This document shows positions 24,308 to 42,157 of a DNA stretch of 64,000 bases, piece after piece. The notes under the pieces were generated by a model, which saw only the letters and a program-made list of their open reading frames with translations, did not search any database and was not told the DNA's origin. The position numbers and the translations under genes were made by a program. Location: positions 1 to 64,000 of the IMG/VR virus record IMGVR_UViG_3300043185_000099; one strand, given 5' to 3'. Within the stretch, counting starts at the first letter, position 1. Every line of letters begins with the position of its first letter. The DNA comes from a virus.

Positions 24308-24437
24308 ACATCCTCCGTATCGTTCGACGGATAGGGCCCCACAACGAAGTTGTTGCCTAGGAGCGTGCTCGCTGAGAACACCACGACGATCACCGCGAGC
24401 ATCCACGGCGACTGCGTGGTCTGTCGCGCTTGTATAT

Positions 24438-25238: not shown

Positions 25239-26315
25239 TCATTCCAGCAGCTCGGCTCGCCAGCCTACCACTCGGTCGGCCACCGTGTTGATCGGTGATA
25301 CGCGGAGGGCCATCGGCGTGAGCTTGCTCGCTCTGTCAGCCAGCCCTCGACCGAGCTTCGTGGCGAGCGACCGCGCCGCGACGACGATGAAGTTGAAGTT
25401 CGGGTTCCGCTCGGTTCGGCCTCCGTCGATGGACACGGTCCACTCGGCAGTAACGAGAGATCGCGTCCCTCGCCGATCGTCGATTTGTGTGCCCGTGTAT
25501 CCGGCCTCGTGGAGCGAGGAGAGGACCATGTCCGCGATGACCGGCGCCGAGGAGCGACGGCCCTGCGTACTCGTGAGCGTCATGTGGGCCAGACCCTGAC
25601 GCTCGTCGAACGTCATCGCGGCCAGCTCGGCCCCTGTCGGAGGAGCCACATCACGCAGGGCGACGGGTCTGCCTGGTTCGTAGCCCTCCACTCCGACACC
25701 CCGCGCGAATTCCTGGCGCACGAGACCATGGTCGGGGGTCGGTCCTCCGACGGCTTCCAACATCTTCGCAACACTCTCGTCGTGCGCTGCCTGTGCCCTA
25801 CGCAGGTGATCCGTAATATCTTGGCTCGCTCGCTTGAGCATGGCTCCGATCACCACTGGATCACGCGCCGTTGTGTGTACGGGGACCGCCGCGTGACCCC
25901 CCTCGGGCAGTGGGCCAGTCCTGAGTTCGGGAACATCCCCGTCGAACTGGAGAAGCTCGACGATCATCCCCATGAACAGGGGATGGAGCATCTTGTAGCC
26001 CGGACGATCCTCGAAAGGTTGGAAGACGAGATCCTCCTCCGTGAACCCCCAACGACTCAGAGCTGTCTCGCGTTCTGGGAAGTGTGCGAGGTCGGTGGAT
26101 TGGGCCTCGACTTCAAACGCCGTGAGCAGCGCCCTCTCCACACGAGAACGCAAGTCGTCGTTCGTCGAGCCAAGCGTCCACACACGGCGAACCGCCTCCT
26201 CCTGGCGGATCAAGCCTTGTCTGGCGTCCTGCAGGATCTGAGCGATTTCTGGACAAGCAACGAGAATCTCCTTGTCGAAGGCCGCGACCGCTTCGAGAAA
26301 CTTGTCTGCGCTCAT
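25239..26315 (-). CDS. hypothetical protein
   Basis: 358-aa ORF with ATGA overlap. Confidence 0.75.
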   Translation of the reverse strand: MSADKFLEAVAAFDKEILVACPEIAQILQDARQGLIRQEEAVRRVWTLGSTNDDLRSRVERALLTAFEVEAQSTDLAHFPERETALSRWGFTEEDLVFQPFEDRPGYKMLHPLFMGMIVELLQFDGDVPELRTGPLPEGGHAAVPVHTTARDPVVIGAMLKRASQDITDHLRRAQAAHDESVAKMLEAVGGPTPDHGLVRQEFARGVGVEGYEPGRPVALRDVAPPTGAELAAMTFDERQGLAHMTLTSTQGRRSSAPVIADMVLSSLHEAGYTGTQIDDRRGTRSLVTAEWTVSIDGGRTERNPNFNFIVVAARSLATKLGRGLADRASKLTPMALRVSPINTVADRVVGWRAELLE

Positions 26316-26967
26316 TTCTCCCCCCGAATCTGGGGGAAGAAGCGAGACGCCGTGCCGACATCGCCGTAGCCCGGGTCGCCGCGGACCTCATCTGGCGAGA
26401 GATCCATTCCCAAACCTTTCCCGCCTCCGTAGACGCGTTGACCCCCGGAGATGTTGGCAATGCGGCCCCCCGCCGAACGGCTGACACCGCTCGCTCGATC
26501 GAGCGCGAGGACGGGACAGCCCGGCTGGCACTCCCATCGCGTCACGACTTCGCCGTCCATGTGGTGCTCCTGGAGCCCGGTCTGACCGGCATGTCCTGTC
26601 GGCCCCGCAACGTCGGAACCGGAGGGTCGCGAGGACGGGTAGTGCCCGTTCGCTCGGACCGATGCCGGGCCGACGGGCACGCAGGATGGATGGTGCTGGA
26701 GCACGACGTTGGGCGGCCATCTTCCGGACTTCGGCTTCCACCGCACCGGATCTCCAGCACGTCCTCCCTGGTCCTGCCCCAGCCGGGGCCCTCCCGCTCG
26801 TAGCTCTGGGGATAGTCCTTTCGTCGAACCGCGTTCACGCTGCCGAGGATGTCCCCTCCGCCAACCCGGGAGCCGTCTATGTCGATCGCGCCCGTCCCCC
26901 ATCGGAGGACGTTCTCCGCAACAGAGGCTCCGGCCAGCGGCTTGCGAGTGATAGTCACGATTCTCAT
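26312..26967 (-). CDS. free-standing DNA-methyltransferase middle module, frameshifted near 26770
   Basis: MRIVTITRKP...WGTGAIDIDGSRV in one frame and GRWPPNVVLQH...CPV..LD...ASRFF in the -1 frame. Confidence 0.7.
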
Positions 26968-27914
26968 GGCTTCCGTCTCCGGAGAGTTACGGTTCCTCCG
27001 GGCTCCACGACGATGTCTTTGCGCGGTGCCCAGGGATCGATGGCTTCCCGTACCGGGAGACGCGCTCGAGCAGTCGCCGGAGGTAGAGGCTCTCCGCCTA
27101 CCATGACGCCCTCCGGCGGCATCGGTGTGTTGAAGGGCTGAGAATGAGGCTGCTGCTCAACAGATGGCGGGGGAGCAATAGACGCTGCTGTCTCTCTCTG
27201 CTTGGTTTCCTCTTCCGCTATCATGCGGAGCTGGTCCTCGTACCAGGAACGCACGGTCTCCAAGTGCTTGCAGCGGTGTATGTGACGGAACCCCTGGCAC
27301 TCGCAAGACCACTCGCCGCTCTTCGTCAACGCAACCCTATAGGACTTGTTCGGCTCGGAGGAAGACGGGTACTGCGTTTCGTACTCGACTTCCGTCACCT
27401 CGCGGAAATGAGTCGGTGTGCTCTCGGACCGCGGTCGCGGCAGATCCGGCTCGGGGCGCCCCTTAGCCCGTGCGAGTTCCTTCACTGCCTCGTCGACGGC
27501 GGTCGTCGCGTCTGGCGCGGCAACCGTTGCCACTCCATCCGAAGGCACATCGGGGATCTCCCAGTCTTGCCTTCGTGCAGCGATCTCCAGACGTTCTGCT
27601 TTGGCGTTCATCTGCTCAAACGCCATTTGGGTGATCGCCTGGTGTTCCGGGCTCGACAGATCTGAGAACTGCGGGTCGTTGAGAAGGTAATCCACCTGCT
27701 CTCGCATCCTCGTGAGCCAGGGGCTGATGGCTCCTTTCGCTCGAATGCAGTCGACGTTACGACAGACTCGACAGAACGCCTTCATGAACGCGTTCGCATC
27801 GGGGTGGAACCACGGCTGTCCGGGTTCGTTGCAGCCGCCGAACAGATCGCGCTGTTCTCTCGGCCGCACACCGACGAGGCGTTCCTCGCCAAGAGAGCGC
27901 TTCGGGTTCGCCAT
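26964..27914 (-). CDS. SWIM zinc-finger protein
   Basis: YRVAL...WSCECQGFRHIHRCKH; N-terminal CRVCRNVDC. Confidence 0.75.
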   Translation of the reverse strand: MANPKRSLGEERLVGVRPREQRDLFGGCNEPGQPWFHPDANAFMKAFCRVCRNVDCIRAKGAISPWLTRMREQVDYLLNDPQFSDLSSPEHQAITQMAFEQMNAKAERLEIAARRQDWEIPDVPSDGVATVAAPDATTAVDEAVKELARAKGRPEPDLPRPRSESTPTHFREVTEVEYETQYPSSSEPNKSYRVALTKSGEWSCECQGFRHIHRCKHLETVRSWYEDQLRMIAEEETKQRETAASIAPPPSVEQQPHSQPFNTPMPPEGVMVGGEPLPPATARARLPVREAIDPWAPRKDIVVEPGGTVTLRRRKP

Positions 27915-28519
27915 CAGTCGTCTGCCAGGGCGTCGATGATATCGTCCTCGACAGCCGCGTCGTCTTTCTCGGGCGGTTCGGTCGATTCCGGTGTGTCTCC
28001 CGCGGCAGCGATCTGGTCTGCGATGCTGGGTGGGCGCGACCCCGCGCTGGGAGCGGGTACGTGCGGCCGCTCGACGTCGCCCAACACAACACGCTCAAGG
28101 TCAGCAGAGACGGGTTCGGGCGCTCGTCCTCGAGGTTCCGGGATCTCGGCAGGATCCTCGATGACCTCGGTGTCTTCCGACGTCAGCGTCTTGTTCCGCG
28201 CCATGTCTTCCCAGTGGATTTGGTCCTTGACGGTCAGCCAGGGTTCCGTCTCGATCACATGCGGACGTCCGGGCCTCGGGTTCTGCTTGAGCGCGAGTGG
28301 ACAGTCCAAGCACTTCGGACCCATGACCATGATCCCGCAATGCTCGCGCCACGTGGTGAGAAGTTGGTAGAGGTTCTGATCGATCGTCCCCTGGCGCCAC
28401 ATTGTGTCGATGTCGTCGGGGGTGTGTCCATACATCTGCGGCGGAGGAAACTGGCGTGCGTGCGTGCACTCGAGGGTGAGCTTGCGCCCTCTGTACTCGA
28501 CATCTATGGATTTGAGCAT
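27914..28519 (-). CDS. hypothetical protein with acidic tail
   Basis: MLKSIDVEY...KCLDCPL...DDIIDALADD. Confidence 0.65.
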   Translation of the reverse strand: MLKSIDVEYRGRKLTLECTHARQFPPPQMYGHTPDDIDTMWRQGTIDQNLYQLLTTWREHCGIMVMGPKCLDCPLALKQNPRPGRPHVIETEPWLTVKDQIHWEDMARNKTLTSEDTEVIEDPAEIPEPRGRAPEPVSADLERVVLGDVERPHVPAPSAGSRPPSIADQIAAAGDTPESTEPPEKDDAAVEDDIIDALADD

Positions 28520-28533
28520 TTGGTGGCCTTTCG

Positions 28534-31500
28534 TTAGAGCCCGTGGATTCTCGCGAGGGTATCGAAGACCAGGGGATTCACCCGAATCTCCTCGTCGGCG
28601 TACTTGATGGGTTCGCCCATTGGTCCGTAGACGCGCAGTGGATGGACGCCGCTCCACCGGCACTCTACGATGATCTCCGCGAGCCGCTGCGCGACTCGAC
28701 ACGACAGGCGTCTCAGGTGCAGCTCATGAGGCGCGCCGGGCGGCAGGGTTGGACCCTGGGGGGTGGCCGGGGCGGGGTCTGGCGTGGGAGCCGTTTCCTG
28801 CGTCCCGGGGGGCCTCGCCACAGGCTCGGGGGTAGGCGGGGGCGTGGTCGTCTCGGCGGGCGTCCGTGCCTCCTGGACGCCTCCCAGGGCTTCCTCCGGG
28901 GGCGCAAAAGGCGCCTGTTCCTCAGAAGGTTTGGGGGGAGCCTCGGTCTGAAGCTTGGGGGCATCCGCAGTGCCGTAGGCCGCCGCGAAGAGGCGGACGA
29001 GATTCTCCGGCCAGCGCTTGGTTGTGGGTTGTCCCTTGGAGTCAACCTCGACGCCATCCGAACGAACTCGACCTGCTTTGAAGACATTCACGTTCCAAGG
29101 GACGGTCCAGTCGTAGCCAATCTCGCAGTCGGTCGTGAGGGGGACGGGCCACTTCCTGTTGAGGATGGTCTTGTTCCGTGCCATCAAATCGCGGAATGTC
29201 TCGATCGCTTCCACGAGAATATCCTCGTCAATCTCAAAGACCAGCTCGTCGTGGATCGTGATCGTCAGGTAAACCTTCTCGAACCACCCTCGCTTCTTGC
29301 ACTCGCGGTAGATCATCCCCATGGCGAGCTTCGTGATGTCGGCCGACAAGCCCTGGATCGGTCCGTTCGTCGCGTTCCGTTCGGCCTTCGCTTTCCACTT
29401 CCTGTTCAAGGCGACTCGCTCTCGCACGACATGGTCGTCTGGAGGGTCCGCGCGTTCTCCCGCTTCAATCTTCTGTCGGTACTCCTCGGTGAGCACGCGG
29501 TGCACCTCGTGCTGTGTCACTGGAAGCTGGATGTCGGGCAGTGGATACCGTCTCCCGAAATCCGTCTCGACGAAGCCATACTTGACCCCGTACTTCTTGA
29601 TGTAATCCCACCACGATCGCAGGGTGGAGTACGTCTGGTTGAATGCACGATGGTGGCGAGCTGCCTCGTCGTTGCTGCACCCGATCGAACGCTCGATCGC
29701 CTGCGGACCACCTCCGTACGCCAAGGCGAAGTTCGACGACTTCGCGTCGTTTCTCTGCTGCTTCCACTGTTTGCCGCCGACGGCGTCCTCACCGAAGAAC
29801 GTGATCGCGGTCAAGGTGTGAAGGTCGCCGATACGGTCGTCGCCGCATTTTGGACAGAACGGGGGTGGCGGTTCGGGAGTAGTCGTGCCGTCCCCTTGAT
29901 CGAAGTCTTGGCCGCACGAGCTGCAGCGGAAGTACTCCCGCATCCACTTGGGTTCACGGGAGAGGATTGTTGCGATGCGTAACTCGACGCCAGCGTAGTC
30001 GATCGAGACCATCACCTTGCCAGGCCGCGCCGTGATGACCTCGCGGACCCTCAGGAGACATTGCGGGCGGCTCTTGTCGTAGGTCGCCGGGGTGCCGTGC
30101 ATCGGGTACTTGGTGCCCCCGTCCTGCGACGGATCCTCGGAGCCAGGTGTGGTGAACCTCCCCGTGTCGGTCCCTTGCTGCTTGTACCTGACCTTGATGG
30201 TCGAGTCCGGGCCTCGGTCGGCATGTAGCGACACGAGATACGTGCCCAGCGCCTTCTGGAGTTCTCCCAGCCGCTTGAACTTGGGCAGGAAGGGATATTT
30301 CTTGCCGTGGTCCGACTCCAGCCTGTCGATGACCTCCTGCGTCGTCTGGATCTGCTCGGACTTTCCCGTGCGCCTCAACCCGGGAATCTGGAGTTCGCAG
30401 AACAGGGGCCCGAGCTGCGGACGCGAGAGCACGTCGTAGCGCTCGGGGAAATCCTTGAAGACCTCCTTTTTCCCATCGATCTTCAGCTCGACGTGCTTCT
30501 CGATGGGATAGAAGTGTCCCTTGCGATCGAGGCGGTCGGCCATCTCCGCCTCCTCGGGATTCATGGAGTTCGTAGACAGCCCCCTGGCGCGGGCCTTGCA
30601 GTCGTCCATCTGGCGGGCGAGGCTGTACGACGGATCGTCCGCAACGAACGTCTTGCGGAGAAGGCGAAACCACGCCGGCTCCACGTTTCGTCCTAACGAG
30701 GCATTACAGGCGTCATAAATCTCGCGGAGGCAATCGAACAGCTCCGTCTGGCCCAGCTGGATCAGCTCGGCTACCTTCCGCTCATCAATGTGAACGCGGC
30801 AGCGCTCCATCCACCGCACTGCCGGTGTGCACATCTTCTCGATCTGGTAGACGGCACGCTGCCCCTTGGACCCTGGAATCTCTTTCTCCAACACCTCGGC
30901 TTTCAGTTTCTGGAACAGTCTCCAGGTGCAAATAACGTCGCTCGTCGCGTACCAGAGGGCCGGCTCCCATGTAATGTCTAGCGTGGAGAAGTCATACGTC
31001 TTTGCTTCGGGCGGGAACAGCTCGTGCAACTCGATCATGTTCATGCCGAGTATTTCGCGGGACATGCTCTTGAGGCTCAGCTCGCGTGACCGGGCGTCTC
31101 GTAGGTAGGCGAGGTGATATGTGTCCTCCCACTTCGTAGGATCGTCCCAGGTACCGAGTGGCGTCCCGACGCCGTACTGCAGGAACTCGTGATCGAAGGA
31201 CCCGTTGTGGAAGATGGCGACAGCAGGCGATTCGACGAGTCGCATCATCGCCCGCTCAAACTTGTTGTGCGGGATGCAGATCTCCTCGTTCGGGAGATGA
31301 AGGAGAGGGATGTAGTAGCCCACTTGACCATCGGGACTAACCCCGACGCCCGCGATTCGGGAAGCCGTTCGGCCGTTGAACACTCGAGAATCCTTGCCCG
31401 ACGTCTCAAGGTCCATCGCGTATAGCCCCGAAGCGACGCACTCGTCGATCACACGGTCAAGCGTGTCTTCGGTGACCAGCTCCATGCGTACCGAGGAGAA

Positions 31501-31560
31501 CCACTCCTTGGGCTGGATGTCAGGACGGGTGGCCTGTTCAAGCTCTGCCAGAAAGTTCAT
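28534..31560 (-). CDS. polA: family A DNA polymerase (3'-5' exonuclease + polymerase)
   Basis: Exonuclease motifs DLET and HNGSFD; TGRF; motif A DYAGVELR, motif B RNDAKSSNFALAYG, motif C IHDEL. Confidence 0.95.
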   Translation of the reverse strand: MNFLAELEQATRPDIQPKEWFSSVRMELVTEDTLDRVIDECVASGLYAMDLETSGKDSRVFNGRTASRIAGVGVSPDGQVGYYIPLLHLPNEEICIPHNKFERAMMRLVESPAVAIFHNGSFDHEFLQYGVGTPLGTWDDPTKWEDTYHLAYLRDARSRELSLKSMSREILGMNMIELHELFPPEAKTYDFSTLDITWEPALWYATSDVICTWRLFQKLKAEVLEKEIPGSKGQRAVYQIEKMCTPAVRWMERCRVHIDERKVAELIQLGQTELFDCLREIYDACNASLGRNVEPAWFRLLRKTFVADDPSYSLARQMDDCKARARGLSTNSMNPEEAEMADRLDRKGHFYPIEKHVELKIDGKKEVFKDFPERYDVLSRPQLGPLFCELQIPGLRRTGKSEQIQTTQEVIDRLESDHGKKYPFLPKFKRLGELQKALGTYLVSLHADRGPDSTIKVRYKQQGTDTGRFTTPGSEDPSQDGGTKYPMHGTPATYDKSRPQCLLRVREVITARPGKVMVSIDYAGVELRIATILSREPKWMREYFRCSSCGQDFDQGDGTTTPEPPPPFCPKCGDDRIGDLHTLTAITFFGEDAVGGKQWKQQRNDAKSSNFALAYGGGPQAIERSIGCSNDEAARHHRAFNQTYSTLRSWWDYIKKYGVKYGFVETDFGRRYPLPDIQLPVTQHEVHRVLTEEYRQKIEAGERADPPDDHVVRERVALNRKWKAKAERNATNGPIQGLSADITKLAMGMIYRECKKRGWFEKVYLTITIHDELVFEIDEDILVEAIETFRDLMARNKTILNRKWPVPLTTDCEIGYDWTVPWNVNVFKAGRVRSDGVEVDSKGQPTTKRWPENLVRLFAAAYGTADAPKLQTEAPPKPSEEQAPFAPPEEALGGVQEARTPAETTTPPPTPEPVARPPGTQETAPTPDPAPATPQGPTLPPGAPHELHLRRLSCRVAQRLAEIIVECRWSGVHPLRVYGPMGEPIKYADEEIRVNPLVFDTLARIHGL

Positions 31561-31578
31561 TGGCGCAAATCTTCTACC

Positions 31579-32034
31579 CTACGTCACGACGAACTCGTCC
31601 CCGACGACGACGAACACGTAACGACCCTCTGCCCATGCGTGAGCGACGGCATTTGCGGCGACTCGCAGGGCATCGCGACGAGCAGGCGCTACATAACACT
31701 CCGGCATCTCACCCGATCCTGGATGACACGTCGGCTTGGCTGCGGCACACATTCTTTTTTGGCGCTCGAGACACATGGTTTCGCCAAGCGGGATCCTCCG
31801 AGCGCGCGCGAACGGAGGATTTCCGAGCTGCAAGCGCAGTGGTTTCGGGTGCCCGTGAAGGGCGTGGGACCACACTTCGCCCGTGACCTCGGGGATCTGG
31901 TCCCCCCACGAGGTACCACGCAGGGGAGTCAAGACTCCCCACGGCTCGCCGGGCAGCGGCGCAGGGTACATGACCAGGAGTCTCGTCGCCCTGTCTGGAT
32001 CGGCTATCGAGGCGTAGCGCAGACCATCGATCAC
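31579..32034 (-). CDS. hypothetical protein
   Basis: 151 aa with GTGA overlap. Confidence 0.65.
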   Translation of the reverse strand: MIDGLRYASIADPDRATRLLVMYPAPLPGEPWGVLTPLRGTSWGDQIPEVTGEVWSHALHGHPKPLRLQLGNPPFARARRIPLGETMCLERQKRMCAAAKPTCHPGSGEMPECYVAPARRDALRVAANAVAHAWAEGRYVFVVVGDEFVVT

Positions 32035-33053
32035 GGTTTCCTCCCGACGACCACAGGCTCCCAGGCTGGCTTAAGCGCGGTCCCGTACCCCTGCCACGTC
32101 TTCGCGAGATCGGAGGAGGGCGCGGTGATGCGACGTGTGCCGTTCCATCGCTCGCCCGTCTTCTGGTAGCCCCAGTCTCCATCCTCAGTAGCAACGAGAT
32201 CGGCCTTCCCTCCGTCCGCGCGGGACCGCATCGCGCGCGACGGGATAGCCGAGGCAATGTAGTCGTCGTGGACGGAGTCGAGGTGCAGCACCTCCTTGAG
32301 ACGGACCCATTCCTCGGGCGTCGGCAGATAGATCTCCTCAGCTCTCTTTCCTCCCCGGCCCTCCACCCACGAGTAACGAGTCGTCCCGCCGAACACCAGG
32401 CGATCCACCTCGACCCTGGACAGCCCGAGAGCCTCTCTCCGCTCGCGGAGGTACGCCTGGATCTCGCGTTCCCTCGCACGGTCTGTTCCTCGCAGCTTGT
32501 CGACAGCCTTTGCCACGTTCGTCGACTTGGGAAATCCCGTCGAGTACGTCCAGGCTCGGATATCCACGTCAACAAACCCCACGCCTCGCATCGCTTTCAC
32601 GAGCCGATGATAGGTTCTGGTCCCCCCGAACGCTCGAAGCATGCCGTCCGGCTTCAGCAGACGGTAGCACTCCGCCAGCCATCGTCTGTGCCACTTATCC
32701 ATCTCCCGGAGGTGGTTGTTCTTGATTTCGTCGGGATCAACGGCCCGACCCCGGACGTGCCACCGCGGGTTCTCGCAAATGCATTTCCGTCGGCCGCGGC
32801 GACGCCCCCCACAGACGGAACACGACGGATTCGCCCCTCCGAATCCAGAGGCCATCCCAAAAGACACCCACTCGGTCTTGCGGGCCCCGATACCAGGCCG
32901 ACTCATCCCGGCCCCGGTCACCCACAACGTGTCCCACTCCGCGCCCATGAATTCTAAGCCGTAGGGGGGATCGCACACGACGGCGTCGATGGACTCGGGA
33001 GCAAATTGTCCGAGCCGCTCGACACAGTCTCCGTGCCACAATTCGATCTTCAC
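32031..33053 (-). CDS. DNA methyltransferase catalytic (DPPY) half only, with zinc-ribbon and HTH insertions
   Basis: GDC, CDPPYGLEFMG, GFPKS; ends GYGTALKPAWEPVVVGRKP. No FxGxG motif. Confidence 0.85.
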   Translation of the reverse strand: MKIELWHGDCVERLGQFAPESIDAVVCDPPYGLEFMGAEWDTLWVTGAGMSRPGIGARKTEWVSFGMASGFGGANPSCSVCGGRRRGRRKCICENPRWHVRGRAVDPDEIKNNHLREMDKWHRRWLAECYRLLKPDGMLRAFGGTRTYHRLVKAMRGVGFVDVDIRAWTYSTGFPKSTNVAKAVDKLRGTDRAREREIQAYLRERREALGLSRVEVDRLVFGGTTRYSWVEGRGGKRAEEIYLPTPEEWVRLKEVLHLDSVHDDYIASAIPSRAMRSRADGGKADLVATEDGDWGYQKTGERWNGTRRITAPSSDLAKTWQGYGTALKPAWEPVVVGRKP

Positions 33054-33661
33054 GACATTCCTTTCACGTCAAGGACCTTTTCGCGGAGACGGACGAGCGC
33101 TTGGACCCCCTTCAGCTCGCCCCACGACTCCTTGCTCACGCCGTAGTCCACGCGATCAAATGTCTCCCAGAATGCGAGGATCGTACGCGCGTCCGGCTCC
33201 CGATCATGGGTGAGCCCCCTGAGCAGTCGATCGGTCCGGCGACGTTCGTCCTCGTAGGAGACCGACCGCGCGACATCAATCTCATCGTGGACATCCGCTG
33301 GACGATCCTCGGCATCGACCCATGGAAGCGCCCCAAGCCCGAGGCGCTGTTCGAGGTGCTCGACTGCCTCCCGGAAACCGACGCCCTCCTTCTCCATGAC
33401 ATAGGCAATCGGATCCCGGCTCTTGCGGCAGACCCAGCACCATGTCGAGTTCGTCGAAGGGTAGTAGCGCGCAGATGGTTTCCGGTCGACGCCGTGGAGA
33501 TCGCACGAGAACTGCTGCTCACGGTGCGGGTCAGAGACGACAGCGTACCCGTACGAGCGAAGCAGGTCGCCAAGGTTGCACGTATGGTTGACTCGATCTG
33601 CACGCGCCCTCAGTCGCTTGATGGCCTTGAGCCGCGCTGCCTCGTCGTCCACCGTACTCAC
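33050..33661 (-). CDS. primase-type CHC2 zinc-finger protein
   Basis: FSCDLH..DRKPS...WCWVC...D.I.YVMEKEG..F.EAV..L. Confidence 0.8.
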   Translation of the reverse strand: MSTVDDEAARLKAIKRLRARADRVNHTCNLGDLLRSYGYAVVSDPHREQQFSCDLHGVDRKPSARYYPSTNSTWCWVCRKSRDPIAYVMEKEGVGFREAVEHLEQRLGLGALPWVDAEDRPADVHDEIDVARSVSYEDERRRTDRLLRGLTHDREPDARTILAFWETFDRVDYGVSKESWGELKGVQALVRLREKVLDVKGMS

Positions 33662-34308
33662 CGGTCGAACGCCTTTCGCAACCGCAGATTCAGAATCAGC
33701 CGAGTCTCCTCGCGGTGCCAACCCGGATACGTCACCGGAGATACCGACGACGATCTACGGCAGGTGATCGGGCAGATGCTGCGCTCCATGAGGAGCGAGG
33801 CTCCCGCATCCGTGAGGCTTAGCACGCGATCGCCATCTCTGTCGCGCGCGTTCCACACGCCATCGTCATCGCGCTCAATGCTGCGGATGAGAGACCGAGG
33901 GGCCTCGACGTCTAGGAGCGCAGGATCGCAGAACACCGCCCACGAGTACCACGTGTATCCGTGGAGTTGGTCTTCCCTTCCTCCCGGAATCGCGAAGCGT
34001 ACCTGTCGCTTGAGCGAGGCGCGTGCGGTGCCCCCCAGGTCGTCGTCGATTCTCTCGAGGAGACGCATCAGGTACCTCGCTCGAGCCTGATCGTGCGTGG
34101 TGACGAGGAACGGAAACTTGTGGTTGTGTCCGCTGTGAGCTTGGTGGAAGTCCAGGCACAGCTCGGACATCAGCTGTACGTCCGGGTCACGTAGCCGTCG
34201 CGAGTCATCGGCGTCGGCGAGGCGGTCTTTGAACACGAGTGACGTGACGTGCAGGGCGAGACCCCCGCGCGCGCGGAAGCCACGGGTCCCCGTGTCTGAA
34301 CCGGACAT
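33658..34308 (-). CDS. hypothetical protein
   Basis: 216-aa ORF in operon. Confidence 0.6.
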   Translation of the reverse strand: MSGSDTGTRGFRARGGLALHVTSLVFKDRLADADDSRRLRDPDVQLMSELCLDFHQAHSGHNHKFPFLVTTHDQARARYLMRLLERIDDDLGGTARASLKRQVRFAIPGGREDQLHGYTWYSWAVFCDPALLDVEAPRSLIRSIERDDDGVWNARDRDGDRVLSLTDAGASLLMERSICPITCRRSSSVSPVTYPGWHREETRLILNLRLRKAFDR

Positions 34309-34340
34309 CCGACGTTGTACGCCTCAGGATAGACGGAGTC

Positions 34341-34802
34341 TCACCCGAGGATCCGGAGACGCACGCGGTCCGGGCCGACACCGCGTTCGGCGGCAATCTC
34401 TGCCCCGCGCTCCACGAACTCCTGCGGTCCCTCGATGCTCACGGTGCCGTCATGGTGCTTGACGTAGAGCCCTTGGCCGCTCCGTCGCAGATCGCGCATG
34501 AGGTGTGCTCCCTTGTCCTTCTGGAGAGCCCGGGGGGCAAGCTCCCTCACGACCACGGTCTCGCCGAGGTTCGTGTGCTGGACATCCAGCAGGACATCGC
34601 TGCGATCGGGACGATGGCGATCCACACCGAATCCGAGGAGCCATAGACAGGAGAATCCCCTGCACGCGGTCGGCCGCCCCTCGTAGATCGAGCACCCCTC
34701 GCGCGAGGCGTGTCGGCACCGTTCGCCAGCCGGCTTGTCGATCTCCTCCACACGCAGCACCGTGCAGCACACGGTGCAGCGTCCGCACGTCCTGGTGCTC
34801 AT
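34341..34802 (-). CDS. YkgJ-family Cys-cluster protein
   Basis: CGRCTVCC...C..CSIYEGRPTACRGFSCLW. Confidence 0.8.
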   Translation of the reverse strand: MSTRTCGRCTVCCTVLRVEEIDKPAGERCRHASREGCSIYEGRPTACRGFSCLWLLGFGVDRHRPDRSDVLLDVQHTNLGETVVVRELAPRALQKDKGAHLMRDLRRSGQGLYVKHHDGTVSIEGPQEFVERGAEIAAERGVGPDRVRLRILG

Positions 34803-35065
34803 GACTCGGGCTCCAGGACGGCCACGATCCACTCCTGCCGAACGATGACCTCGACGCCGTCTTCCTGGCGCACGGAGAACTCCACGACCGTCGGGTGCGT
34901 CGGGTGATCGCCCCGCACGCGGATGACCACGCCCTCGACGACCCTCCTCGTCGCGGCCACCTTCATCTGCGCACCGGCCAGTGAGGCGCGAGGGATCGGC
35001 TCGAACCACTCGGCCCTGACACGCGTCCCCTTGGTCACGTAGACCTCGGTGCGATTCTCCGTCAC
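34799..35065 (-). CDS. hypothetical protein
   Basis: 88 aa, overlapping both neighbours by 4 nt. Confidence 0.6.
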   Translation of the reverse strand: MTENRTEVYVTKGTRVRAEWFEPIPRASLAGAQMKVAATRRVVEGVVIRVRGDHPTHPTVVEFSVRQEDGVEVIVRQEWIVAVLEPES

Positions 35066-37002
35066 AGCATGGCCTCCACGTCGGCGACGCCGATCACCTG
35101 GACGCCGTAGTCGCGCGCCTTCTTAGCCTTGCCGCTCGCCGATGTCGGGTCCTTCGCTACGAGATACGTGAGATCCTTGCCCACGCTCGTCTTGATAGCC
35201 CCTCCGGCGTCCTTGATCCGATCCTCCATTCCCTTGTCGCGGATCCCGGTGAAGCAGAACGACTTGCCCGACAGCTTCCCCTTCACGGGGCCCTTGACGG
35301 AGACGCCGGCCGCCAGCAGGTCCTCGACCAGCTTGCGGCAGCCGCGGAAACCGTCGACGAACGCTCCCGCCTTGGTCTCGCCCAGTCCGGGGATCGCGGC
35401 GAGGGCGGCGAGCGACGCCTTCCCCATCTTCTCCAGCGTGTCGAACCCGGCGTCGACGATCATCTGGCACACCGTCTGGCCGCAGAGGTCGATCCCGAGC
35501 GCGCCCACGAAGTCTGCGATGCGAAGCGTTTTCTTGGCGGAGAGGTTCTCCAGCATGCGCTCGGCCGTGCTGGTGCCGATCCTCTTCCCCGAGAGCTGGA
35601 AGTCTTCCAGATCGGTCACCGTGAGTCGGTAGATGTCGGCGAGGGAACGGACCTTGCCCGAGGCACAGAGCGCCTCGATCGCCGTGTCGCCCCACTCCTT
35701 CACGTCGAGTTTCTTGACCCACCGCTTGACGGCGCCGCTCTGCTGCGCCGGGCACCGCGCCCCGTCGTCGCAGACGAGGAACTCCCCCTTCTTGGACAGG
35801 GGCTTGCCGCACGACGGACAGTCGCGAGGGATCGCGAACCTCCCGTTCTGCGACGGCCGCAGCACCTGCTCCACGTATGGGATCACGTCGTTCCGACGCG
35901 AGACGAGCACGGTGTCGCTCATGCCGAGCAGGTTCTGCGGGCACTTCTCGGCGAGGCGGCGGATGTTGGACTCGTTGTGGAGGCTCGCCTGCGAGACGGA
36001 CGCACCCGCGAGGTTCACCGCGTCGAAGTACGCCACCGGAGTCACCCGGCCGCTCGCTCCTACCTGCCACACGATCTCGCGCAGCTTGGTGGGCTGCTTC
36101 TCGTGGGGGAACTTGAACGCCCGTGCGCCCTTGGGCCGCCCGTCGTGCTCGCCGAGGTGCTCCATGGCGGACAGGTCGTCGAGTTCGACGACGAGTCCGT
36201 CGATTTCGTAGTCCAGACCCTCCCGCGTCTTGGAGACATACTCCCTGTAGACGGAGAGGACATCGTCGACCGTAGACGCTGTGCTCCAATTGGGAGTTAT
36301 ACAGCCGAGCTTCTCCAGGAGCTTCAGCTCGACGGACTTGCGCACGATCCCGTGCGCGTCCGTGATCACTTGGTAGCAGATGACCGTGAGGTGCTTGCAC
36401 GGAGCCGGGTCCGACTCTCGCTTGGCGATGCCCGAAGCTGCGTTGCGTGGGTTCTTGTACTCGGGGACGTGCTTCCGATGATCGCTCCGCAGAAGAACGA
36501 TCTCACCGCGCACGAACCCGGTGAAGTCGCGCATCTTCCTCTGGACGCCCTTCATCAGCAGGACGTTGCGCGTGATGTCCTCGCCCATCTCTCCGTCTCC
36601 CCGCGTGAGAGCCTGGACGAGCTGCCCGTTCTCGTAACGGAGGCTGATGGAGATCCCATCGAGCTTCTCTGAGATCACGATGCCTGGATCAGCCGAGCCG
36701 ACATCCCCGGAAACGTGGGCCGCCCGAATCTTGGCGCTTACGTCGGTGTGCCACTCGGCGAGTTCCTGCTCGACCTGGACCTTGAGGAGACTGCCCATGG
36801 GCGCCCCGTGGCGTACCTTGGACCACCCGGACTTGGGCTTCGCGCCGACAGCCTTGAAGTAGGCGTTCTCGGGGTCCAGGTCTCGTAGTTGGTCCTCCAG
36901 CGCGTCAAACTCCGCATCCGACATGATGGGGGAGTCCCCGTAGTAGGCGTCCCTGGCCTGCTGGAGCTGCTCGACGAGGTCCTGGACTTCGCGTGTACTC
37001 AT
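35062..37002 (-). CDS. ligA: NAD-dependent DNA ligase
   Basis: AYY..SDAEFD, EKLDG, TRGDG, RGE, NPRNAASG, IDGLV, Cys4 zinc finger, HhH repeats and BRCT (FCFTG). Confidence 0.95.
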   Translation of the reverse strand: MSTREVQDLVEQLQQARDAYYGDSPIMSDAEFDALEDQLRDLDPENAYFKAVGAKPKSGWSKVRHGAPMGSLLKVQVEQELAEWHTDVSAKIRAAHVSGDVGSADPGIVISEKLDGISISLRYENGQLVQALTRGDGEMGEDITRNVLLMKGVQRKMRDFTGFVRGEIVLLRSDHRKHVPEYKNPRNAASGIAKRESDPAPCKHLTVICYQVITDAHGIVRKSVELKLLEKLGCITPNWSTASTVDDVLSVYREYVSKTREGLDYEIDGLVVELDDLSAMEHLGEHDGRPKGARAFKFPHEKQPTKLREIVWQVGASGRVTPVAYFDAVNLAGASVSQASLHNESNIRRLAEKCPQNLLGMSDTVLVSRRNDVIPYVEQVLRPSQNGRFAIPRDCPSCGKPLSKKGEFLVCDDGARCPAQQSGAVKRWVKKLDVKEWGDTAIEALCASGKVRSLADIYRLTVTDLEDFQLSGKRIGTSTAERMLENLSAKKTLRIADFVGALGIDLCGQTVCQMIVDAGFDTLEKMGKASLAALAAIPGLGETKAGAFVDGFRGCRKLVEDLLAAGVSVKGPVKGKLSGKSFCFTGIRDKGMEDRIKDAGGAIKTSVGKDLTYLVAKDPTSASGKAKKARDYGVQVIGVADVEAML

Positions 37003-37125
37003 CTGGCCTCCCGTACGGCCCGGTCCCCGCTTTTACACGCCGCGGCCGCCCAACGAGGCCCGCGCACTATGCGCGTCACCAGGACCTCGCGAAAACCAGT
37101 ATCTCCTCTATAGCCCACCACCAGG

Positions 37126-37707
37126 GTGTCCCTGTCTCTCCGAGAAGGAGCGCTGTCGCAAGACGTCGAGGTGCTCCTCCACGGGGATCGGCTCGTGGTC
37201 GCGGCGGGCCCGGTGCTGCGCCAGACCCGATGGTCGGGTGGTCTCTGGGTCCTGTTCGTCACGCCGACGGGCGTGAGCGACTGGATCGTCGAGAGATCGA
37301 ACGGCGTACAGGCGACCGGATTCCTGCTGTTCGGCTCGGAGAACTACGCGAACTCGGCTGGCGACGCCGGCTACCGCAACTTCACGAGCATCCAGCCGGC
37401 CAACCCGCAGGCCACGACGTTCGCGATGGGCGCCAACACGCTCCCGATGGTCACGGGCGGAGGTCGGTTCCTCTTCCGCGTGTTCGAGACGGTGGCGCTG
37501 ACGCCGGCGGGCGTGCGCGCCGGCGGTCCCGCCGTCTACAACCTCAACGACATCCTCAAGGTCAGCGAGAACGGTCTCCTGTGCAACGATCCCGACGCCA
37601 ACCTGCTGGCCGCTACGGGTGGCACGGAGACTATCAAGGTGGGGACATGCTCGGCCATTCCCGATGACCGCAGTGGCAACAGGCTCGGCCTCGACTTCAA
37701 GTTCTGA
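37126..37707 (+). CDS. hypothetical protein (possibly virion-associated)
   Basis: 193-aa isolated + strand ORF with strong GC3 codon bias. Confidence 0.7.
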   Translation: MSLSLREGALSQDVEVLLHGDRLVVAAGPVLRQTRWSGGLWVLFVTPTGVSDWIVERSNGVQATGFLLFGSENYANSAGDAGYRNFTSIQPANPQATTFAMGANTLPMVTGGGRFLFRVFETVALTPAGVRAGGPAVYNLNDILKVSENGLLCNDPDANLLAATGGTETIKVGTCSAIPDDRSGNRLGLDFKF

Positions 37708-38332
37708 CCTGCTTGAAGAATCTCGATCCCCCTCCCTGATCGCCGTACCAGATCTGCGGCGTGTCGGCTGGACGGCTCTCTGCACCGAAGGTCGCGCTTC
37801 TGTTTCCGTCTCGCCCTCGCCCCGTCCGTCGCTTGATCGTGCCGCTTCCACTCGCGAGCAGACCACTCTGCGCGTCGATGTCATCGACGGGGCATCCGCG
37901 TTCGCACGTCCACGACGCAATAGTCTCGAGCCCGTCCGTTTCCGCGTACCCGTGGTCTGGCGTCCCTGGAGGCACCTTGCCCCAGCCGGTGACGCCCTCC
38001 GATCTCACGCCGTGGCGCTTGACGGCGACGCCTGTCTTGACTCTGCGAGTCCCGCTCTGTCGACATCCTGCAAGGTGCTGCAGGATCACGTTCGCCGGCC
38101 ACCGTCCTCCGGCCGTCTCGGGACCGTGAAATGTCTCTCCTGACGTCGATCTGCCTTCGTTTCGATGACCGAGACAGAGACCGTCTGGTCCTCGTCGCGT
38201 GCAGTGGGTCCCACCACCGTCGGATCCGATCCGGCTCCTGGTAATATCCAGCGCACCTGTGCCCCAGGTCGACACGTTGTCCGTGATGCTCTGTTGAGCC
38301 AGCGGCTTGCGCGAGATGGTGACGACTCTCAT
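37697..38332 (-). CDS. free-standing DNA-methyltransferase middle module
   Basis: MRVVTISRKP...WGTGALDITRSRI...GRWPANVILQH...W.C..GCPV...GGSRFFKQV. Confidence 0.75.
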   Translation of the reverse strand: MRVVTISRKPLAQQSITDNVSTWGTGALDITRSRIGSDGGGTHCTRRGPDGLCLGHRNEGRSTSGETFHGPETAGGRWPANVILQHLAGCRQSGTRRVKTGVAVKRHGVRSEGVTGWGKVPPGTPDHGYAETDGLETIASWTCERGCPVDDIDAQSGLLASGSGTIKRRTGRGRDGNRSATFGAESRPADTPQIWYGDQGGGSRFFKQVRT

Positions 38333-38883
38333 GGACGTACCTGCTTGAAGAATCTCGCCGCCGCCGTGCCGCTGTCTCCGTAGTCCTCGGGTGGAACAAA
38401 CACTCGATGACGCGGGAGCACTGGCGCTTTCCCCCGGTCGACCTTGAACGGTTGCTGTCCAGGTCGTGCTCGACGGGACACTCCCGTTCCGGTACCGCCC
38501 GATTCGCTCTGTCGGTCCAGGATCCCGACGGGACACACCGGACCGCACTCGCCGTCGCACGCCTTGACATGCTGGAGGATCACGTTCGCCGGCCACCGAC
38601 CAAGCTGCTCGGACGGGCGCTCTGCCATGTAAACATCCGCGCTTCCACGACGCCCGAGTTTACCAAGAAGCTCGGTCTCGGACGCTCGGCTAGAGCCATA
38701 GATCCGCTCGGCCATGGGCGCCTTGTCAGACTTGCGAGCCGAGGCTCGCCGTGCAGCAGCGGGAGATCCTCCAGGAGACGATATCCGACAGGGATCCACG
38801 GCGAGGCCACCAGACCCCCAGCGCTGGATGTTCGCCGCGATGGGTCCCTCAGGTGGTTTACGCGCTACGGTGATCACCCTCAA
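38329..38883 (-). CDS. free-standing DNA-methyltransferase middle module
   Basis: MRVITVARKP...WGSGGLAVDPCRI...GRWPANVILQH...CPV..LDRQS...AARFFKQV. Confidence 0.75.
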   Translation of the reverse strand: MRVITVARKPPEGPIAANIQRWGSGGLAVDPCRISSPGGSPAAARRASARKSDKAPMAERIYGSSRASETELLGKLGRRGSADVYMAERPSEQLGRWPANVILQHVKACDGECGPVCPVGILDRQSESGGTGTGVSRRARPGQQPFKVDRGKAPVLPRHRVFVPPEDYGDSGTAAARFFKQVRP

Positions 38884-40418
38884 TCTTCGACTCCTCCGAT
38901 GTCGAGGCCGAAGATACCACCCTCCTGCTCAGCCTCGTTCTCCATGGGTGGAACTTCGCTCTCGATCCTGGGGGACAGGTCACCCGGGGTTTCTGCCGCC
39001 TTCCATCGCACGCGTTGTTCTGCAATCTGTGCGTACTCGACGTCCTGCTCGATGCCCACGAAGTTGAGTCCGTGCCCCTTCTTCCGACGTTTCGATTCGG
39101 CCATGCAAGCGAGCCCTGTCGTACCGGACCCCATGAATGGATCGCAGACCAGCGCACCATCCGAGACGTCTCTCAGAAGAGCTTCCATGACGGCAACCGG
39201 CTTCACTGTGGGGTGGTCCGACTGCACGATGCGCTTTTTCTCGACCGTACGCGTGTCGAACCGCTCGCGCATTTCATCAGGAACGTCGTCGACTGCCAGG
39301 CCGTCCTCGACCATCCTCTCCAAGATGTCTTTGTCCACATTCTCGGAGAGTTCTTCGCGCAGATCCTCGACACTCTCGTCCTCGCGCGGGAACAACCGCT
39401 CCGAGCGGATGACCTTTTCCCTCGGTACGACGCCAGCGTTGCGTTCCGTAGTGCTAGCCTTCGCGACGTAGTGGAACTCTCCAGGCGTGTCGAGGACGGC
39501 GATGGCGTCCCTGATCTCGTACCCGAAGTCCTCGACGGCACACGCCCCCGTCGTCCCGGTCGGGTCGTCCTCGTCCGAGATCAGGAGCAGGTGTGCTCCC
39601 GGACGCAGCACCCTGTCGATCTCCTTCATCCACGGGCTGGGATCGCCGACGGTCACGATGCCGTGCACGGACTTGTCGGCGAGGGCCGCGAAGTCGACGC
39701 TGGCCAAGTCGGCCTCGGCGATGATCACTGGCTCGCAGCTCGGGGGCGGGCTGATCATCGTGACGAGGTAGTCCCAGAGTTCCTGCGGGATGCCGTCCTT
39801 CATGTCTGCTCTCCTGGTCTGTTTGAAGAAGCGCGAGGCTCCGCCTCCATCGGCGTAGACGCGCGTGCCCGGATCGTTGAGGGCCACGTCGCCCTGTGGG
39901 TCTCCGTAGACGACACCCCTCTTCCGCGTCGCGGTCGCCGGATGCGGGTGAGGCCCGCGAGGATCGGCCCTCCCCGTGAGGGTCGAGGGTCGATCCCCGG
40001 ACTGGCGGTCGAGCGCCATCACGGCACATCCGTCCTGGCAGACCCACTTGACGACCCTCTCGTCCGGCAGTCGCTCGCTCTCGTACGCGACCCCCGCCGC
40101 GTCCCCGAACGGATGGGCCCCTCCCACGTGCCTGTTGATGACGTAGCCCGGCACCATGGTCGTGCCGTCGGGCCTGCAGCCCGTCTCGTGGACGAGCACG
40201 GTGTTGGCCGGCCAGCGACCCGACGCGCTCGACATCTGGCCGCTGCGGCGATGGGTCGCGCGACCTCCCACATGCCTGAAGTCCGGCTGCGGCACGGACG
40301 GAGGCACGCCCGCGATGCGGCACCCGTCCACGTCGATGGCGCCCGCGGCCCACCGCAGAGCGTTCGACGTCGCGCTGCCCTCCGAGCACACCTTGCGGGA
40401 GAGCGTCACCACTCTCAC
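38880..40418 (-). CDS. methyltransferase middle module fused in-frame to a DPPY-less, SAM-binding module (internal start at 39803)
   Basis: RVVTLSRK...GAIDVDGCRI...GRWPAN...ASRFFKQ; then AGGAG-ATG MKDGIP..., RVLRPGAHLL, GYEIRD, YVAKASTTERNAG, HPTVKP and DPFMGSGTTG. Confidence 0.8.
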   Translation of the reverse strand: MRVVTLSRKVCSEGSATSNALRWAAGAIDVDGCRIAGVPPSVPQPDFRHVGGRATHRRSGQMSSASGRWPANTVLVHETGCRPDGTTMVPGYVINRHVGGAHPFGDAAGVAYESERLPDERVVKWVCQDGCAVMALDRQSGDRPSTLTGRADPRGPHPHPATATRKRGVVYGDPQGDVALNDPGTRVYADGGGASRFFKQTRRADMKDGIPQELWDYLVTMISPPPSCEPVIIAEADLASVDFAALADKSVHGIVTVGDPSPWMKEIDRVLRPGAHLLLISDEDDPTGTTGACAVEDFGYEIRDAIAVLDTPGEFHYVAKASTTERNAGVVPREKVIRSERLFPREDESVEDLREELSENVDKDILERMVEDGLAVDDVPDEMRERFDTRTVEKKRIVQSDHPTVKPVAVMEALLRDVSDGALVCDPFMGSGTTGLACMAESKRRKKGHGLNFVGIEQDVEYAQIAEQRVRWKAAETPGDLSPRIESEVPPMENEAEQEGGIFGLDIGGVED

Positions 40419-42157
40419 TCCGGTCTTCTCGCGACGACGATGGGCTCCCAGGCCGGCTTCAGAGCGGTGCCGTACCCATCCCACAGCTTGGCCTCCTCGG
40501 TCGCCGGGACCGTCACCGGGACCTGGACCGGAATCTGACGGATGCCTGTCCCGTAGGCGCCGAGAGATCCGCCCGGACTCGTGTGGATGCGCGGGTCTTT
40601 GCCGGCAAGAACGTCGTTGAGATTTTCTCCGCCGACGCCGCGAGAGTAGCCGACTACTTGTCTCTCGGCCTTGGCTCTCCTGTCGATCTGCTTGGAGATG
40701 TTGGTCGATTTCGGGAAGCCACTGTTCCCGGTGACGAAGACGCGACCGTTGTGGCGAGCGAGGAAGGCTCCGGTCGGCACCCGGACACACCACACGTCGC
40801 CCGTGTAGTGTTCCCGAACGGGATCCTTGAGGTGTCGTCGTACGAGCTGTGTCTGCGGGTTCTCATGCAGAGAGACGGTCGCCTTGCGCGGATTGTCGCG
40901 CGCCTGCCACCCGATGACGTGTGCGAGCGTCTGGAACCACTCGCGATCCGCATCGTCCTTCTGATAGAAAGCCTTGGCGGCCGGGGTTCCGTCACCGCGG
41001 AGAGCCGCGTGGAGGAATGCCTCCTTCTCCTCCAGCGACATCCTCCAGAGCAGATCATACGTTGGGTGCTTGTCTGGCAGGTCCTCGCGCACTCGGGCGG
41101 CCATTTCCCCAGTGAAGAACCACATGTGCTCGTCGTACGGCAGCCCCCGGTAGAGGCGCGGACGAACGTAGTGCTTGCGATACGGCACCAGATCCCCCAC
41201 GAGAGCATGGATCTCCTCGACGAACTCGCGGCCCGATCCGTCGACCCTCGTACTCTGGCAGATCCTGACTCCGGTGCCGTGCTCGTCGAATCCACCCTCC
41301 GTCCATACCCAGGCCAGTAATTCGGCGTAGCGAAGGCCACCGTCCAGGCCTGAACCATCGTGGTAACCGGCGAGAGGGAGGTTGAGTGTGTTCCAGCGAT
41401 TGATCTCCCCGGCTTCCACCGCGTTCCAGTGATCCTCGCGAGTCGTGACGCGGACGCCGTCCCGCTGCTTCCTGATCCGCGCTCGCTTGTAGACCCGATG
41501 GTTCGGTGTGAGCATCTGGTCTGTGTTGTCGTTGACAAACCGGACCATCTCCCCGTCGTAGGGAGCGACGATCTTCTCCTGGACAGGCAAGAGCAGGACG
41601 GCCTCGGTCTCATGGTCCCAGCACGCCACCCGTTCCCTCTCGTCCACATCGATGCCGAGCTTCCAGCCGTGTTCGGTCAAGATCTCGGACGAGGCATCGA
41701 GACACCCGTAAATCCAGGAGTGCAGCTCGACGTCGACGAGACCCGCGCGCCGCATCGCCCTGACCATGCGATGGTAGGTCCGCGTGCCGCCGAACGCCTT
41801 GACGACGCCTCCCGGCCGCAGCTTGCGGAGTACGAGGTCCCAGAAGTCGGGATCGAACGCGATGCCCGTCGCGTCCCAGACCTTCCCCATGAAGCCCCCA
41901 CCTCTTCGCACTTGGTCGTGAGAGTCCAGCCGGGTCCGGCCGAAGGGTGTCCCGGGATCATTCATGCGAGGACTTCCCCCACGGCTGGCGGACGTCATGC
42001 GAGGACTTCCCCCACGGCTGGCGGACGTCAGATCGTACGGAGGATCGGTCACGACGACGTCGAGACTGTCATCTGGAAGTTCTGCCAAACGAAGCAGGCA
42101 GTCACCTTGCCAGAGTCTGATGTTGGCTGTAGATCTTGTCTTGGTGGCGGACATCAC
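40415..42157 (-). CDS. intein-containing DNA methyltransferase catalytic (DPPY) half only
   Basis: GDC, TDPPY, GFMGKVWD, AFGGTRTYHRM, SGFPKS; ends GYGTALKPAWEPIVVARRPE. No FxGxG motif. Confidence 0.85.
   Translation of the reverse strand: MMSATKTRSTANIRLWQGDCLLRLAELPDDSLDVVVTDPPYDLTSASRGGSPRMTSASRGGSPRMNDPGTPFGRTRLDSHDQVRRGGGFMGKVWDATGIAFDPDFWDLVLRKLRPGGVVKAFGGTRTYHRMVRAMRRAGLVDVELHSWIYGCLDASSEILTEHGWKLGIDVDERERVACWDHETEAVLLLPVQEKIVAPYDGEMVRFVNDNTDQMLTPNHRVYKRARIRKQRDGVRVTTREDHWNAVEAGEINRWNTLNLPLAGYHDGSGLDGGLRYAELLAWVWTEGGFDEHGTGVRICQSTRVDGSGREFVEEIHALVGDLVPYRKHYVRPRLYRGLPYDEHMWFFTGEMAARVREDLPDKHPTYDLLWRMSLEEKEAFLHAALRGDGTPAAKAFYQKDDADREWFQTLAHVIGWQARDNPRKATVSLHENPQTQLVRRHLKDPVREHYTGDVWCVRVPTGAFLARHNGRVFVTGNSGFPKSTNISKQIDRRAKAERQVVGYSRGVGGENLNDVLAGKDPRIHTSPGGSLGAYGTGIRQIPVQVPVTVPATEEAKLWDGYGTALKPAWEPIVVARRPE
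40724..41704 (-). mobile_element. intein (327 aa) with LAGLIDADG-like endonuclease
   Basis: G|CLDASSEILT, block B LTPNHRV, FLHAALRGDG, and VWCVRVPTGAF...VTGN|S. Confidence 0.9.
41962..42030. repeat. perfect 33-bp tandem duplication (TSASRGGSPRM x2) just after the DPPY motif
   Basis: TCATGCGAGGACTTCCCCCACGGCTGGCGGACG occurs twice. Confidence 0.95.

Follow-up and report, generated by a model that had tools for sequence, protein, structure and literature searches.

The first 64 kb of the 151,955-bp IMG/VR virus record IMGVR_UViG_3300043185_000099 (hereafter the window) contain a group of genes in which the motifs of a beta-class DNA methyltransferase of the family PF01555 are distributed over separate proteins. 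These proteins are called here N, a catalytic half with motif IV; M, a middle module corresponding to the target-recognition domain (TRD); and C, which carries motif X and motif I in a half that we term the SAM (S-adenosylmethionine) half. All N, M and M-C genes of the window are located on the minus strand, within a replication block that also encodes a DnaB-like helicase, an NAD-ligase, a primase Zn-ribbon protein and a DNA polymerase A. Across N2 and the M4-C fusion gene, the order of motifs IV-VIII, TRD, X and I is kept, but not in one polypeptide, and the split lies at RKP|MRV. The CheckV completeness of approximately 29% at a length of 152 kb indicates a very large phage, and a tblastn search with every module as query revealed no extra copies of N, M or C in the 152-kb record.

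Two catalytic halves are present. N2 (40415-42157, 580 amino acids) extends from motif IV (DPPY) through strand beta-7, is interrupted by an intein and ends with GYGTALKPAWEPIVVARRPE immediately before its stop codon, which overlaps the start of M4. N1 (32031-33053, 340 amino acids) is the second catalytic half and ends with EPVVVGRKP. The preliminary description of this DNA had read both as catalytic halves that stop at EP(V/I)VV(G/A)R(K/R)P, and the translations and alignments agree with it: DPPY is present in N1 and N2, and both proteins stop directly after GYGTALKPAWEP(V/I)VV(G/A)R(K/R)P. The PF01555 match of N1 reaches 43.2 bits (gathering cut-off 26.7 bits) and spans profile positions 1-95, while Pfam gave no match on the whole of N2 because the intein interrupts the protein; a hidden Markov model (HMM) of N built in this study matches N2 on either side of the insert. 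DPPY is invariant among 38 N-only homologues, and HMM position 359/360 (...EPxVVGRKP) is the end point of each of the approximately 65 N-only clusters. N1 carries inserts that are found nowhere in N2, namely a CxxC...CxC series and a weak helix-turn-helix (HTH)-like segment (HTH_31, under its cut-off), so that N may also contribute to recognition. At the syntenic position in a related contig, L013 (14975-16047), which is flanked by the primase Zn-ribbon gene and a small gene ahead of the polymerase A gene, N1 is missing, and we therefore regard it as an accessory insertion in the window phage.

The middle modules differ in their state of preservation. M3 (38329-38883, 184 amino acids), whose TTG start overlaps the stop of M4-C, and M2 (37697-38332, 211 amino acids), whose ATG overlaps the stop of M3, are intact stand-alone TRD modules that start with MRV(V/I)T..RKP, end with (S/A)RFFKQVR and share the internal motifs G.L..D..R, GRWPANVILQH..C and C...CPV..LD.QS. 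M4 (39804-40418) forms the N-terminal part of the M4-C reading frame and M1 (26312-26967) contains a -1 frameshift; of the four separate middle modules first proposed, M2 and M3 thus stand as such, but M4 and M1 do not. The anchors of M2, M3 and M4 are 42-77% identical to each other, and their variable regions are 0-17% identical and differ in length. The Cys/His-rich variable loop of M2 is common to single-chain enzymes such as the full-length protein P0033. The M family has four invariant residues (H86, C90, C143 and C147), which likely form a zinc site. No Pfam family was found for M1-M3 or for any of the approximately 35 clusters of free M proteins (160-220 amino acids), and the atlas neighbours of M are exclusively unnamed viral proteins. 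In M1, the -1 shift is needed between approximately 26730 and 26860, within the first variable region, and another assembly of the run that is probably the source has the identical sequence at a depth of 35. M1 is probably a pseudogene; alternatively, it may require frameshifting during translation, although no slippery heptamer for a programmed frameshift was seen in 26730-26860.

The tight arrangement of the genes that had been pointed out earlier is borne out by the junctions, where start and stop codons overlap by 4 nucleotides. N2, M4-C, M3 and M2 are chained through GTGA (N2/M4), TTGA (M4-C/M3) and ATGA (M3/M2), and further overlaps join M1 to its upstream gene (ATGA) and N1 to the next gene (GTGA).

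M4-C (38880-40418) is a single frame of 512 amino acids with a PF01555 match of 62.2 bits over profile positions 34-220. Its C part (38880-39803) consists of a pseudo-half lacking DPPY (approximately 39465-39803) and the SAM half (approximately 38880-39464), which carries FHYVAKAS, HPTVKP and DPFMGSG. The SAM module had been described as a gene with its own Shine-Dalgarno (SD) sequence. A candidate internal start for free C is indeed found at 39801-39815, where AGGAGA (39810-39815) precedes an ATG (39801-39803) by 6 nucleotides, but it lies inside the M4-C frame, which has no stop at 39803/39804. The junction Met is kept in 31 of 40 M-C fusions, and an SD-like motif stands ahead of it in L013, L027, L028 and L030 and is missing in the clade of L016, L021, L025 and L109. 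On these sequence features, free C appears plausible as a second product from the internal start.

C is more than the C-terminal third of an enzyme. Besides the motifs HPTVKP and DPFMGSG, it contains a degenerate N half: the first approximately 110 residues of C are homologous to the N half (RVLRPGAHLL, ED.GYEIRD), and GDPSPW takes the place of DPPY. Among 34 C proteins, the motif IV position reads G(D/N/T)P and never DPPY, and the H..K of HPTVKP and the D..GSG of motif I are invariant. The N-terminus of C was also considered as a degenerate motif X/I; it may be motif III instead. C runs from beta-6 directly into FHYVAKAS, without beta-7 and without a TRD, and its profile aligns to residues 67-259 of CcrM. 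C is consequently nearly a whole methyltransferase-like domain, degenerate N half included, which lacks only beta-7 and the TRD. The strands flanking the cuts are duplicated, as the alignments confirm for the RKP strand on both sides of the N|M break and likewise reveal for the RFF strand on both sides of the M|C break. C proteins also end in a conserved acidic tail, I.S(D/E)...(L/F)(D/E)D(L/F)FG (approximately 38880-38960 in the window, minus strand; alignment A3), whose sequence resembles a short docking peptide.

The same cuts recur in many unrelated phage contigs. We scanned 174 fetched loci with HMMs for N, M, the pseudo-half and the SAM half; the locus search with the C profile had mostly returned ordinary methyltransferases, one of its patterns being the generic motif I, and only L028-L031 from it were useful. 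At a threshold of E<=1e-30 (about 130 bits), this profile retrieves 3195 representative clusters, and canonical enzymes of the PDB score no higher than 79 bits with it. Approximately 35 clusters of free C and 70 of M-C were found. In L014, C, N and M are three separate genes (C..N|M) with the identical N|M cut. The layout of the window, with N, M-C and then one or two free M genes, is repeated in L013, L027, L028 and L030, with two free M in L027 as in the window, and M-C or M-M-C stands ahead of N in L016, L021 and L025. The gene order in other phages is thus C..N..M, or M-C followed by N. The richest module set among the scanned loci belongs to L031/L114 (IMGVR_UViG_3300025669_002088), with one C, six N and six M within 9 kb in the array C,N,N,M,N,M,M,N,N,N,M,M,M, and L126 has one C, two N and seven M. 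No locus of the 174 contained more than one C with a pseudo-half.

Natural fusions join the same modules in several orders: N-M-C (P0355, P0315), C-N (P0364, P0416, P0417, P0406), M-C-N (P0418), M-M-C and M-M-M-C (P0317). The single chain of P0355 retains both copies of beta-7 (...NWEPILLGVKH-linker-RVVWLARKP...), which argues that the duplicated strands are not redundant leftovers. The modules are furthermore under purifying selection, with ratios of nonsynonymous to synonymous substitution (dN/dS) of 0.13 for M2 (against L026 and L027), 0.33 for M3 (against its L026 orthologue) and 0.22 for the end of C; the synonymous rate is near saturation in these comparisons with L026 and L027. The earlier impression that intact motifs speak against random decay is therefore upheld by motif invariance and dN/dS, with M1 and its frameshift as the exception: judged from the sequences, the cuts into N, M and C are otherwise not a product of decay.

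Structure prediction adds to the picture of assembly in trans. In the predicted complex of N1, C and M2, the interface score ipSAE of M2 was 0.88, compared to 0.63 for the best of three controls; of the benchmark cases, 58 of 80 solved complexes and 2 of 110 mismatched pairs attained that mark. At least 74% of contacts were common to the runs, with a partner pLDDT (predicted local distance difference test) of at least 55. The tightest contacts place M2 residues 4-9 between C residues 69-75 and 97-104, i.e., beta-5' and beta-6' of the pseudo-half. This model suggests that the first strand of M occupies the missing beta-7 slot of the pseudo-half, and the predicted docking of M on C depends little on N. 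The notion of one fold cut into three pieces is hence too simple, since C carries a pseudo-half at which M is modelled to dock by strand insertion; this docking would provide each of the duplicated strands with a slot of its own.

The AlphaFold2 (AF2) model of M4-C alone (pLDDT 77.9) was superposed by canonical beta-class enzymes only at residues 313-490, over approximately 80-90 residues with a root-mean-square deviation (rmsd) of 1.3-2.1, and its pseudo-half separately matches generic Rossmann folds. Foldseek matches of this model to beta-class enzymes were rejected as fold matches (TM 0.12-0.25) and re-read with VIA. The test for a canonical Rossmann-like fold was positive on the fused relative P0355, not on the chains of the window itself. 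The AF2 model of this natural N-M-C chain (pLDDT 86.1, predicted TM-score 0.87) is matched by CcrM with a Z of 25.9 and an rmsd of 2.9 over 230 residues (model 1..604, chain 4..257) and by M.BceJIV with a Z of 24.9 over 210 residues; METTL3 and MTA1 are among the further structural matches (Z 13-14). The wide span of CcrM on the model means that only N and the SAM half can be matched, and suggests that N and the SAM half of C together rebuild the canonical beta-class fold. The proposal that the subunits assemble in trans has thereby gained in silico support from shared breakpoints, invariant motifs, selection, fusions, the predicted complex and the CcrM superposition.

Taken together, we consider it probable, at roughly 60%, that the region encodes a multi-subunit beta-class DNA methyltransferase composed of N, M and C proteins, in which C acts as a hub and several specificities are directed against host restriction. 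A DPPY motif IV points to N6-adenine, which is the probable target base. N would supply motif IV and strands beta-4 to beta-7, and C would supply motif X and motif I (HPTVKP, DPFMGSG) together with a catalytically dead copy of the N half. M would be a TRD flanked by a beta-7-like strand (MRVVT.RKP) and the RFFKQ strand. In a live lobe, N would pack against the SAM half of C to form one canonical catalytic lobe, and in a dead lobe M would contribute its first strand, in trans or in cis, to complete the pseudo-half of C. This strand insertion may anchor the DNA-reading domain beside the active site. The working set in the window would comprise N2 after splicing and/or N1, M4-C, perhaps free C, and the free modules M2 and M3.

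The occurrence of one C beside several N and M genes, and sometimes of M-M-M-C, makes C look like a shared hub. We hypothesize that the middle modules are exchangeable, which would fit the contigs with one C and many M and N genes, the M-M-M-C tandems and the pattern of conserved anchors and variable regions in M2, M3 and M4; these three features point to alternative TRDs and hence to several specificities. Different M modules, and different N proteins with their own Zn-ribbon or HTH inserts, would then yield several methylation specificities against host restriction. More tentatively, the system may be fully combinatorial, with the dead half-domain of C as a socket that takes interchangeable M modules by beta-strand insertion and a live half that takes interchangeable N. 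From one hub, n N genes and m M genes would then give up to n x m specificities, and the family would represent a living intermediate of 'permutation by duplication', a route along which the classes of methyltransferases may have arisen. In its layout, the system resembles a stage of tandem duplication and truncation that became frozen. Activity, target base, the exchange of modules and the anti-restriction role are what we infer from these sequence and model data.

Several observations weigh against such a multi-subunit enzyme. The record represents only about 29% of the genome, so that further C copies may lie elsewhere. No C or M gene adjoins N1, and three contigs (L022-L024) contain M with neither N nor C within 8-10 kb. 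C occurs in the window only as the fusion with M4, a cis module that would be in competition with free M2 and M3 unless the internal start produces free C. Regarding the models, the control with a score of 0.63 was the run in which N1 had been replaced, and the test therefore backs the docking of M on C more than the place of N. The pass of the complex may also partly reflect likeness to solved beta-class folds because the M strand mimics beta-7. The alignment used for P0355 included single-chain enzymes, which favours canonical packing of N and the SAM half, and the assignment of the lobes is based on aligned ranges and contact lists.

Low genome completeness also leaves room for fixed heterotrimers without exchange, in which every N and every M is part of a dedicated enzyme of its own and the extra modules pair with unseen C genes, or in which M2 and M3 are obligatory second TRDs as in dimeric CcrM. 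Beta-class enzymes act as dimers with division of labour (PMC7544214), and N1 and M1 are located away from the main cluster. We nevertheless regard fixed heterotrimers as rather unlikely: the loci with many N and M genes (L031/L114, L126) have exactly one pseudo-half-bearing C within 20 kb, minimal systems with a single M exist (L014, L025, L016), and the modules of an M-M-M-C chain are unable to fill one slot simultaneously.

The contigs in which M stands alone within 8-10 kb raise the question whether free M proteins are independent zinc-binding DNA-binding proteins derived from TRDs, i.e., regulators, decoys or inhibitors of host enzymes, an option already considered in the preliminary description. 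The invariant H86, C90, C143 and C147, the lack of a Pfam family and the unnamed viral neighbours in the atlas agree with such a role. However, the best conserved parts of M are the beta-7-like and RFFKQ anchors, which would have no role outside an enzyme. Translation of M2 and M3 is coupled to that of M4-C, the models predict docking on C, and in other proteins this module forms one chain with C or stands between N and C. The reading as an independent zinc protein is thus quite improbable, and for the lone M genes, too, it is the less likely one.

As C aligns to nearly the whole domain of CcrM (67-259) and covers PF01555 positions 34-220, it could in principle be the enzyme by itself, its pseudo-half and SAM half forming a complete fold with a non-canonical catalytic loop and N being accessory or separate. 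This is very unlikely, given that the motif IV position shows no conserved aromatic or DPPY-like motif, that beta-7 and the TRD are missing, and that the pseudo-half is not canonically packed on the SAM half in the AF2 model; N, moreover, keeps an invariant DPPY without a SAM motif, and C-N fusions exist. Finally, the frameshift in M1, the HNH endonuclease gene next to N2, the inteins in N2 and in C of a relative and the two intact single-chain PF01555 enzymes of the window could suggest broken paralogues, remains of duplicated single-chain genes cut by homing endonucleases and inteins, but identical breakpoints across hundreds of clusters, invariant catalytic motifs, dN/dS of 0.13-0.33, tight overlaps and fusions in several orders largely refute this for N1, N2, M2, M3 and M4-C, so that it holds for M1 only and is hardly credible for the locus as a whole.

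The multi-subunit enzyme proposed here shares its motifs and their order with single-chain PF01555 enzymes such as CcrM (6PBD), M.BceJIV (8URK) and M.RsrI (1EG2), in which the series runs DPPY ... GTALKPxxEP..ARKP ... G.LNID and GRWPAN in the TRD ... RFFY.AKAS ... HPTVKP ... DPFMGSG. In contrast to these, the chain is cut at fixed points, the flanking strands are duplicated, N and M are present in multiple copies, and C has gained a dead second half-domain which, according to the models, holds the TRD. Alternative TRDs on one core have been described for the multispecific C5-cytosine methyltransferases SPR, phi3T and rho11s of Bacillus phages (passages of PMC7544214 referring to Trautner et al. 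1996 and Walter et al. 1992). The M-M-M-C tandems (P0317) mirror the tandem TRDs of these SPR-type enzymes, which, as characterized in those passages, differ by their C5 chemistry, a different fold order (motifs I-X) and the presence of all TRDs in one polypeptide, without separate TRD subunits, a pseudo-domain or a separate catalytic half. The C5 motifs PCQ and ENV are missing from the genes studied here, whose motifs are those of an amino-methyltransferase (DPPY), and the likeness to SPR is a functional analogy only.

Other elements of the proposal also have precedents. M.AquI and M.EcoHK31I are naturally split C5 methyltransferases with an active site formed by two polypeptides of adjacent genes (PMC3404938), but they are two-piece enzymes without exchangeable TRD subunits, multi-copy modules or homology to the present family. 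Type I (HsdM/HsdS) and Type IIB (BcgI A/B) systems use a separate, swappable specificity protein encoded by translationally coupled genes (PMC3510504, PMC3592470); they belong, however, to the gamma class, their unrelated S subunits contain two TRDs and coiled coils, and their catalytic domain is unsplit. In MettL3-MettL14 and MTA1-MTA9, an active beta-class subunit is paired with an eroded one that lacks motif IV and helps to hold the substrate (PMC7544214). The lobes of these complexes are whole separate proteins, whereas the dead lobe modelled here shares a chain with the SAM half of the live lobe and is completed by a strand of the TRD subunit. In a literature search that did not cover subscription journals, no account came up of a beta-class enzyme that is split and has its TRDs as subunits of their own, nor of one that combines the features above. 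The component ideas, a core with multiple TRDs, a split active site, a separate specificity subunit and live and dead lobes, are known.

If the proposed architecture is true, it would represent a widespread and unannotated way of diversifying methylation against host restriction in tailed phages, mostly large uncultured ones, in which small subunits are swapped instead of whole enzymes. It would be the first amino-methyltransferase in which two proteins make the active site and a pseudo-enzyme lobe holds a third protein, the recognition domain. Thousands of "hypothetical" M proteins and of "DNA methylase" fragments read as broken genes would gain a meaning, and the system could serve as a natural scaffold for programmable methyltransferases.

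The intein of N2 (40724-41704, minus strand, 327 amino acids) is inserted at WIYG|C...VTGN|SGFPKS. It starts with Cys1 (CLDASSEILT), contains a TPNH block, LAGLIDADG-like motifs and VWCVRVPTGAFLAR, and ends with VFVTGN followed by Ser. The termini agree with those of an intein (N-terminal Cys, TxxH in block B, Asn before Ser), except that the penultimate residue is Gly and not His. It has no Pfam match at E<=0.01 and no PDB sequence match at E<=1. Inserts at the same site and with the same end motifs were found in seven homologues (P0234, P0244, P0272, P0291, L016, L021, L025); they are 140-390 amino acids long, some being mini forms of 140 amino acids. An insert in C of a relative gave a faint Hint_2 match. 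In the M4-C orthologue of L027 (285-2891, 868 amino acids), an intein is located within HP|TVKP of the SAM half, and the C homologues P0298, P0305, P0318, P0323 and others exhibit gaps of 300-350 amino acids near this place. Together with the N2 intein, these cases indicate that inteins strike both N and C at conserved motifs.

The window has a GC (guanine plus cytosine) content of about 63%. A single public DNA run, a freshwater metagenome that is probably the source sample, contains the stretch, no RNA run is listed among the sequencing runs containing it, and a megablast of the 16.5-kb region against phage records gave no match. Two complete single-chain PF01555 methyltransferases are also encoded on the minus strand (23220-24356, 108.8 bits; 45509-47242, 125.9 bits), and judged from these two additional enzymes the phage invests heavily in DNA methylation. 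An HNH endonuclease gene with repeated CxxC (41964-42938, plus strand; PF01844, 31.7 bits) abuts the 5' end of N2 on the opposite strand. In L014, an opposite-strand gene of 327 amino acids with a weak match to a PvuRts1I-like endonuclease lies between C and N. Free-standing homing endonucleases may thus travel with such methyltransferase clusters. Pfam found no family for the small open reading frames neighbouring the modules. One of them, a gene of 178-193 amino acids at 37126-37707 (plus strand), converges into the end of M2, and this same gene, on the opposite strand and 178 amino acids long, comes after the M2 orthologue in L026 and L027.

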